From a virus (lineage: Duplodnaviria > Heunggongvirae > Uroviricota > Caudoviricetes), in the IMG/VR virus record IMGVR_UViG_3300029241_000040: a stretch of DNA of 10,530 nt; one strand, 5' to 3'. Positions 129-902 of this stretch are shown here, piece after piece; position 1 is the stretch's first letter; the number at the start of each line of letters is the position of its first letter. The translations under genes and the position numbers were made by a program. The notes under the pieces were generated by a model. It had not been told where the DNA came from, made no database searches, and saw only the letters and a program-made list of their open reading frames with translations.

Positions 129-902
129 ATGGATATTACTGAGTTTCCTTCTGGAGTAATTGAACACCTTGGCTGGTATGTATACCGATTGATTGATCCG
201 AGGGACGGAAGCACCTTCTATGTAGGGAAAGGCAAAGGTAACCGCGTATTTGCCCATATGCGCGGTGAAGTGGCAGCGACTGATGATGACGAGTTACTGA
301 GCAACAAGCTAAAGCAAATTAGAGAAATAAGGTTAGCAGGACTTGAGGTTATCCATGTCATCCATCGACACGGAATGACTGATGAAAAGACGGCGTACGA
401 AGTTGAAGCAGCACTTATTGATGCCTACCCTGGGTTAACGAATATCATGAATGGTGCTGGCAGCAATGAATTCGGCGCCGCGCATGTCAAAGAGTTGATA
501 GCAACATATCAACCCGAAACCATAATATTTCATCATAAAGCATTAATGATTTCCGTTAACAGAAGTGCAAAGGATTCAGAGCTTTATGATGCGGTTCGAT
601 TTAGCTGGCGCATTAATGTCTCTCGCGCTAGCCAAGCAGAAGTCATTCTTGCTACTGTAAGGGGGATCGTTCGAGGGGTTTTCATTGCTGATAAATGGCT
701 CAAATCAACACGTGAAAATTTCCCTACGATGAAATACTGGGACGAGGATCCGGACTTTGAGGCAACACAAAGTTCTCGCTATGGTTTTGAAGGTCGAGAA
801 GCCTCACCTGAAATAGCAAATCTTTATCTTGGAAAAAAAATACCAGATGAATTAAGAAAAAAAGGAGCTATGTCCCCGGTCCGTTACTCACCTAATTTTT
901 GA
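129..902 (+). CDS. GIY-YIG nuclease-domain protein with an uncharacterised C-terminal domain (257 aa); candidate defence or cargo nuclease
   Basis: ORF of 257 aa. N-terminal motifs seen in the translation: W-Y-V-Y-R-L (GIY-like, aa 16-21), F-Y-V-G-K-G (YIG-like, aa 30-35), Arg39, and [15 protein letters not shown] (catalytic Glu93 and Asn105 pattern typical of GIY-YIG). C-terminal residues about 115-257 have no motif I recognise. The gene is AT-rich relative to neighbours and convergent with the invertase gene. Confidence 0.8.

Follow-up and report, generated by a model that had tools for sequence, protein, structure and literature searches.

A gene almost certainly encoding the modification-dependent nuclease CMoRE (PD-T4-3) as cargo of an e14-like prophage

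CMoRE, initially named PD-T4-3 and originally found in E. coli ECOR68, belongs to a family of anti-phage nucleases that first came to light in the functional selection carried out by Vassallo et al. (2022). The text of that study names a GIY-YIG nuclease among the new systems, the name PD-T4-3 and the locus described here both being absent from its main text (PMC9519451). In E. coli NILS69, PD-T4-3 was one of only two defence systems found to be active in the native host, against Tevenvirinae. Liu et al. (Nat Commun 2026) renamed it CMoRE, and the PDB entries used below come from that work (PMC12923530). We report here on a gene carried by a 10,530-nucleotide stretch of Caudoviricetes DNA (IMG/VR record IMGVR_UViG_3300029241_000040, the whole of which is called the window), at positions 129..902 on the + strand. 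This gene is almost certainly CMoRE, a modification-dependent anti-phage restriction nuclease, carried as cargo of an e14-like prophage. The family is already known, having been discovered in 2022, shown in 2025 to work in a native host, and described structurally and biochemically in 2026, so that the novelty implied by a first-pass annotation of the window, made from its letters, falls away.

When cloned with its native promoter, the CMoRE gene makes T2, T4 and T6 plate some five orders of magnitude less efficiently, and abortive infection is not involved (PMC12923530). The purified enzyme degrades DNA containing 5-hydroxymethylcytosine (5hmC) or glucosyl-5hmC, and spares DNA containing cytosine or 5-methylcytosine (5mC); T4 deprived of glucosylation is sensitive to it, T4 with unmodified cytosine escapes, and catalytic mutants of the enzyme lose defence (PMC12923530). 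Cuts follow a symmetric CN11/N9G pattern with 2-nucleotide 3′ overhangs, and two modified sites are needed (PMC12923530). The N-terminal domain has a GIY-YIG fold nearest to that of UvrC, with an extra tyrosine making a ‘GIYxY-YIG’ motif (Y17, Y19, Y31), and a 15-residue acidic loop, inserted between helices α2 and α3, lies over the active site. In the 4A mutant, where four consecutive acidic residues of this loop are changed to alanine, ordinary DNA is attacked and the enzyme becomes toxic. CMoRE is tetrameric, and the V92S/L96S change kills both oligomerisation and defence. Its C-terminal domain binds 5hm-dCTP (the triphosphate of the hydroxymethylated nucleoside), with a main-chain contact at Y127 (PMC12923530). 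A Capnocytophaga homologue, 48% identical, is likewise a modification-dependent nuclease, which at high concentration also cuts Mu DNA.

The window gene starts with an ATG and encodes 257 amino acids according to the list of open reading frames (ORFs). Its product is identical to WP_089529875.1, the ‘LEM-3-like GIY-YIG domain-containing protein’ of E. coli TUM10008. A sequence search of the PDB aligned all 257 residues with the CMoRE entries 9U75/9U8D (E 3.3e-170) and 9U7U/9U7Z (E 1.5e-150). Identity reaches 251/257 (97.7%) with the E. coli O157:H7 enzyme (PDB 9U75), and 219/257 (85.2%) with that of E. coli APEC O1 (PDB 9U7U). PADLOC, a check that the first-pass annotation had suggested, gave a full-length match to its PD-T4-3 model (PDLC04031; residues 1-256 of 257 against model positions 1-255 of 256, E 8.7e-140), and the PHROGs collection matched the protein end to end with phrog_5356. 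Pfam recognised a LEM-3-like GIY-YIG domain (PF22945) at residues 28-110, with an E value of 2.2e-14, above the gathering score, and found no family in residues ~115-257; no NCBIfam model matched the protein. Forty homologues, at 53% identity or more, were aligned and used to build an AlphaFold model, with a predicted local distance difference test (pLDDT) score of 80.5; a Foldseek search with this model placed the four CMoRE entries on top (E 1e-37 to 1e-40), followed by UvrC GIY-YIG domains.

Two parts can be delimited in the gene. The N-terminal GIY-YIG part (129..458, +) is supported by PF22945, by comparison with the residues of the crystallised proteins and by the Foldseek matches to UvrC; the C-terminal, modification-sensing domain (residues 116-257) occupies 474..899 on the same strand. 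The catalytic residues listed in the first-pass annotation were all found in the translation where it had placed them (Y17-V18-Y19, Y31-V32-G33, R39, E93 and N105), which makes its GIY-YIG motif set complete. Every residue named by Liu et al. is kept, namely Y17, Y19, Y31, R39, E93, N105, R80, V92, L96 and Y127. V92 and L96 belong to the tetramerisation interface, as does the β1-β2 loop, and the window protein would also be a tetramer. The acidic run over the active site, published as an autoinhibitory lid, lies in the inserted loop at 282..293 (+) and reads D52-D53-D54-E55, as in APEC O1, the O157:H7 enzyme having DDDD. Within the 40-sequence alignment, Y17, Y19, Y31, R39, E93 and Y127 never vary, N105 is kept in 39 sequences, and the loop has at least three acidic residues in all 40.

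The window copy therefore has the length, two-domain architecture, GIYxY-YIG motif, R/E/N residues, acidic loop, interface residues and Y127 of the crystallised enzymes, and its locus is of the same type as theirs, adjoining pinE in E. coli, including O157:H7. Identity, conservation of functional residues and genomic setting were all read directly on this copy. Its catalytic fold is also that of the UvrC N-terminal domain, Hpy188I and T4 EndoII, UvrC giving the best Foldseek matches after CMoRE, for the N-terminal half. Compared to UvrC and the GIY-YIG restriction enzymes, CMoRE adds the extra tyrosine (GIYxY) and the 15-residue acidic insertion, and UvrC, unlike CMoRE, does housekeeping work as a repair nuclease and has other domains.

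By orthology, the window copy would share the enzymatic activity and phage specificity of CMoRE. The enzyme would be a tetramer, built as a dimer of dimers, whose C-terminal domains would bind DNA carrying 5hmC or glucosyl-5hmC, one dimer reading two modified cytosines ∼21 bp apart (CN11/N9G). The N-terminal GIYxY-YIG domains would cut both strands, leaving 2-nucleotide 3′ overhangs, and the acidic loop would shut ordinary host DNA out of the active site. Incoming T-even phage DNA would in this way be destroyed directly and the host cell would survive, because modified DNA is read, both strands are cut, and host DNA is excluded by the loop. The first-pass annotation had seen in the combination of a nuclease and a possible sensor domain the build of a one-gene anti-phage effector or of a type IV-like restriction enzyme, and the CMoRE family has been published as exactly such. 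The phage panel with T4 glucosylation mutants and the catalytic mutants that it had called for have also been published for CMoRE, and their outcome was as predicted (PMC12923530).

Some observations nevertheless weigh against a functional CMoRE gene in the window. Six residues differ from the O157:H7 enzyme (window residue first: T51A, E55D, I133T, Q169K, N197H and S226P); these are conservative or surface-type substitutions, and none of them falls on a reported functional residue. The other concern is the upstream region, where an IS1 copy ending 52 bp before the ATG displaces most (~150 bp) of a ~200-bp conserved region, and where a consensus scan found no + strand promoter, in the IS1-bearing window or in an IS-free relative (IS, insertion sequence). 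Because most of the conserved region has been removed and no consensus promoter is seen, the window copy may be silent, or driven from IS1.

The best surviving alternative is that the CMoRE coding sequence is intact and has been transcriptionally silenced or rewired by IS1, so that the copy may provide little defence, or be expressed by IS1 read-through or from a hybrid promoter. It bears on the activity of the gene, not on its identity, and we hold it to be possible, though clearly the less probable situation. The insertion itself is plain: window 1..76 (+) is the right terminus of IS1, with the 3′ end of the transposase frame and the terminal inverted repeat, co-oriented with the nuclease gene. 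This segment is 100% identical to both IS1A copies of strain D1 and has matches at tens of thousands of sites in E. coli genomes, and identity to the IS-free TUM10008 genome starts exactly at base 77. What remains of the native upstream sequence is 52 bp (77..128, +), in which neither a consensus promoter nor an obvious Shine-Dalgarno sequence is seen, compared to the ~200 bp conserved among IS-free relatives (95.7% identity over 231 bp, a stretch that takes in the first 30 bases of the coding sequence). Promoter strength matters for this system, as the APEC O1 native promoter gave weak defence that was rescued by a T7 promoter (PMC12923530). On the other hand, the ORF is undamaged, its DNA being 100% identical to the IS-free TUM10008 copy (as is the whole of window 77-1600), the co-orientation of IS1 makes read-through possible, and the native promoter could lie in the retained 52 bp.

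IS1 was found upstream of the gene at three positions, ~-152 (7 genomes), -52 (the window) and ~-10 (strain S51), in each case co-oriented with an intact nuclease ORF (L002 ~8077 and L018 ~2551 for the loci compared with window 1-128). The intact ORFs at ~-152 and ~-10 argue against simple decay. An AT-rich target hotspot could explain such repeated insertion, and so could selection acting on expression. The -52 junction itself was absent from 5,426 complete E. coli genomes, in which only other IS1 positions turned up. Compared to the crystallised CMoRE loci, the window copy differs by this IS1 and by a 3-bp ‘ttc’ insertion in the leader (window 107-112, 17-19 bp before the ATG), which reads aattcttcatagat instead of the aattcatagat of the other genomes examined. 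The ‘ttc’ insertion is common to the window allele and TUM10008.

We now turn to the place of the CMoRE gene in the prophage. It converges with a pinE-type serine invertase gene (963..1553, - strand, in the ORF list; the RefSeq start corresponds to window 1517, and the gene is annotated pinE in TUM10008), and the two stop codons are separated by a 60-bp spacer (903..962) that forms the junction between prophage homology and cargo. No consensus terminator was found between the two convergent genes. Homology of the window to the e14 prophage of K-12 stops at 962, at the pin stop codon, and gene order in K-12 is ymfQ-stfP-tfaP-tfaE-stfE-pinE-mcrA-attR; the nuclease gene is therefore in the position equivalent to that of mcrA. 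The pin gene is 92% identical to K-12 pinE, and window 3419-5097 is 98% identical to the ymfQ/jayE region of e14. With 43.4% GC overall and 36.4% at third codon positions, the nuclease gene departs from the baseplate genes (56-59%) and from the window as a whole (52.9%). The picture drawn by the first-pass annotation, of a compositionally foreign gene, convergent to the prophage genes and lying in the mcrA slot at the outer end of an e14-like prophage, directly beyond pin, is borne out in all its parts.

The occupancy of the slot was counted in the same set of complete E. coli genomes. Among these, pinE covering at least 80% of the query was present in 1,288, the nuclease gene was adjacent to pinE in ~566, and the arrangement pinE-mcrA-attR was found in 329. 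In the sampled pinE loci, the slot held CMoRE five times (L004, L005, L006, L008 and L013) and mcrA once (L009). It was empty in L007, where the host gene pphA directly adjoins pinE and homology to the window ends at 938, 25 bp past the stop codon. Only these three states of the immediate slot were seen in the sample. More distant pin homologues lie inside P2-like tail modules without a terminal cargo slot, and therefore say nothing on cargo turnover. When the literature was searched for a defence hotspot named at the slot next to pinE, only work on PinQ/StfE2 inversion came up.

The McrA enzyme of K-12 e14 (EcoKMcrA) thus occupies the same position as CMoRE, directly beyond pinE at the prophage end, and CMoRE works like McrA and other type IV enzymes, by joining a reader to a nuclease. 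The resemblance ends there: McrA is an HNH nuclease without sequence match to the GIY-YIG enzyme CMoRE, mcrA is transcribed away from pinE whereas the CMoRE gene converges with it, and the mcrA-bearing e14 is integrated in icd whereas the CMoRE-bearing element adjoins the pao/yagU region. Membership of the window protein in the McrA family was rejected, as no HNH family appeared in a Pfam scan at E<=1 and position is the only thing in common with mcrA. Being unrelated and oppositely oriented, mcrA and CMoRE do not look like alleles of a single cassette, but like independent captures by one slot.

Several small E. coli ‘plasmid’ records, such as NZ_CP104634.1 (L016, 30.5 kb; PLSDB), contain 99% identical copies of the gene. 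We rejected them as plasmid-borne copies, because they stop at pinE and contain the ecp-yagU-pao genes of the chromosome; such records look like pieces of chromosome.

The first-pass annotation had also raised the idea of a partner gene left of position 1, the nuclease being then one half of a two-gene system, and indeed the window begins just 128 bp before the ATG. In TUM10008 (L001 6795-11646), the genes directly upstream encode a C5 DNA methyltransferase, a type II restriction endonuclease, a DUF6650 protein and a protein with an AbiTii domain, and the methyltransferase/endonuclease pair is also found in L013 and L016. The four TUM10008 genes form a small defence island at the end of the prophage, and the CMoRE locus as a whole is a defence-rich prophage end. 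In the window, however, the immediate left flank is IS1, which is why the upstream defence genes of TUM10008 are missing. In the nine loci compared, pinE always lies downstream on the opposite strand and the upstream neighbours differ: an AraC-family regulator with an IS fragment beyond the CMoRE gene in four (L004, L005, L006, L008), the methyltransferase in three (L001, L013, L016), and IS1 in two (L002, L018). Furthermore, the gene cloned alone confers defence, and all 274 of the 274 CMoRE systems catalogued from 22,803 genomes are single-component (PMC12923530). As no upstream neighbour is conserved and single-gene clones defend, the suggestion of a partner is unsupported, and we consider it very improbable.

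Least credible of all is that the window protein is a GIY-YIG homing endonuclease, that is, a selfish mobile nuclease and not a defence enzyme. In favour of it, jumbo phages carry full-length homologues labelled ‘putative homing nuclease’ or ‘G-I-Y Y-I-G endonuclease’, and PHROG 314 ‘homing endonuclease’ gives a weak, partial match (E 0.0034, residues 17-133 only). The phage labels, however, follow from nothing more than the name of the domain, and over its full length the protein matches PD-T4-3/CMoRE. Published cleavage depends on modification and not on a specific sequence (PMC12923530), the second domain has no Pfam match to a homing-endonuclease DNA-binding module, and the gene is free-standing, outside any intron, intein or interrupted host gene. 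The idea is effectively refuted, and the last two of these points, with the weakness of the PHROG 314 match, speak against an I-TevI-like enzyme in particular.

The jumbo-phage homologues deserve mention in their own right. They are full-length, two-domain proteins, 38-46% identical to the window protein, found in lytic phages of ~250-285 kb: Serratia phage Moabite (gp009, L017 3501-4265), Pseudomonas phage OBP, Klebsiella phage N1M2 and Pantoea phage Survivor. The Moabite protein, the only one that was aligned, keeps the GIYxY-YIG residues, R39, E93, N105, Y127 and the sensor domain, and lacks the run of acidic residues of the autoinhibitory loop. These homologues might serve in phage-versus-phage competition.

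We then considered CMoRE's C-terminal domain, for which the structural study found no homologue in sequence or structure, and which it called a distinct fold (PMC12923530). A sequence search of the PDB with this domain returned CMoRE entries only, even at E<=10. At the same permissive value, Pfam placed no C-terminal family in any of the 40 homologues, and the EVE, ASCH, YTH and SRA models showed no sequence-level similarity in 40/40 family members. The first-pass statement that residues ~115-257 could not be assigned to any family therefore stands at the level of sequence, beyond CMoRE itself. At the level of fold it stands less firmly. In the top 50 of a Foldseek search with the domain, all matches after CMoRE were to YTH, VcaM4I, ASCH, TTHA0113, MJECL36 or the N-terminal domain of McrB (VcaM4I with a probability of 0.87, ASCH with 0.80 and a template-modelling (TM) score of 0.47), and a second list of structure hits included the PUA-like domain of ATP sulfurylase. 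Taken individually the PUA-like matches are weak, with E values of 0.02-0.5, TM-scores below 0.5 and Z scores well under the level of clear homologues. It is the uniformity and functional coherence of the two lists, not any single match, that provide the lead.

On this basis, it is about an even bet that the C-terminal domain is a highly diverged PUA-like reader of the EVE/ASCH/YTH type, a fold-level lead rather than a demonstrated relationship. We are equally divided over the wider proposal in which the sensor is such a reader and not a distinct fold, and the pinE-distal slot captured McrA and CMoRE independently. A reader joined to a GIY-YIG nuclease would have a precedent in the catalogue of Bell et al. 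2020 (PMC7641849), where EVE-GIY-YIG fusions are listed among the predicted type IV enzymes. Compared to these and to the EVE-HNH enzymes VcaM4I and TspA15I, CMoRE has the reversed domain order, with the reader C-terminal; its TM-scores stay below 0.5, and its published ligand site is at the domain edge, not in a pocket.

The rest of the window describes the prophage itself. From 77 to 10497, it is gap-free and collinear with TUM10008 at 99.84% identity, and RefSeq annotation could therefore be transferred to it. From left to right, pinE is followed by an invertible tail-fibre (P) segment (1579..3447), a gp53-like fibre gene, ymfQ and baseplate genes. The P segment offers two alternative C-termini for the fibre and includes two genes for tail-fibre assembly, and its crossover sites are 20-nucleotide inverted repeats (1579-1598 and 3428-3447), 95% complementary. 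Inversion of the equivalent e14 segment was reported in 2025 to produce a chimeric fibre, StfE2, which blocks T2 adsorption; if that report applies here, two different anti-T-even functions may lie side by side. The baseplate set on the right of ymfQ comprises J/gp47, gp46, V and another baseplate assembly gene. Next come a DNA circularisation gene without its N-terminus (7404-8558) and, abutting and overlapping it, an antiterminator-like gene without its C-terminus (8519-9247) that has DnaJ-type CxxCxGxG zinc-finger repeats. This truncated pair points to a large deletion of the head genes and most tail genes, and the prophage is therefore defective. The rightmost genes of the window are a DUF968 gene and then a KilA-N fragment; further right, TUM10008 has an integrase gene adjoining a tRNA gene. 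Collinearity with TUM10008 stops at 10497, and the KilA-N-like frame, truncated in that strain, runs on in the window (10498-10530), which therefore retains more of this gene.

Made blind from the sequence, the prediction that a prophage cargo site holds a type IV-like defence nuclease matches the literature. That two unrelated nucleases directed against modified cytosine share one prophage slot is of modest value, and so is the repeated IS1 insertion upstream of the gene, which bears on the tuning of expression of such nucleases. If the C-terminal domain is indeed PUA-like, CMoRE would follow a plan that is common among type IV enzymes, ‘PUA-like reader + nuclease’. In that case the physiological recognition site would probably be a pocket for a flipped base, its walls formed by aromatic residues that are invariant in the family (Y153, W160, W190, F198, Y233 and Y253), and not the domain-edge site seen with soaked 5hm-dCTP. 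This would shift the search for the specificity determinants of an enzyme that has been proposed as a tool for 5hmC mapping.
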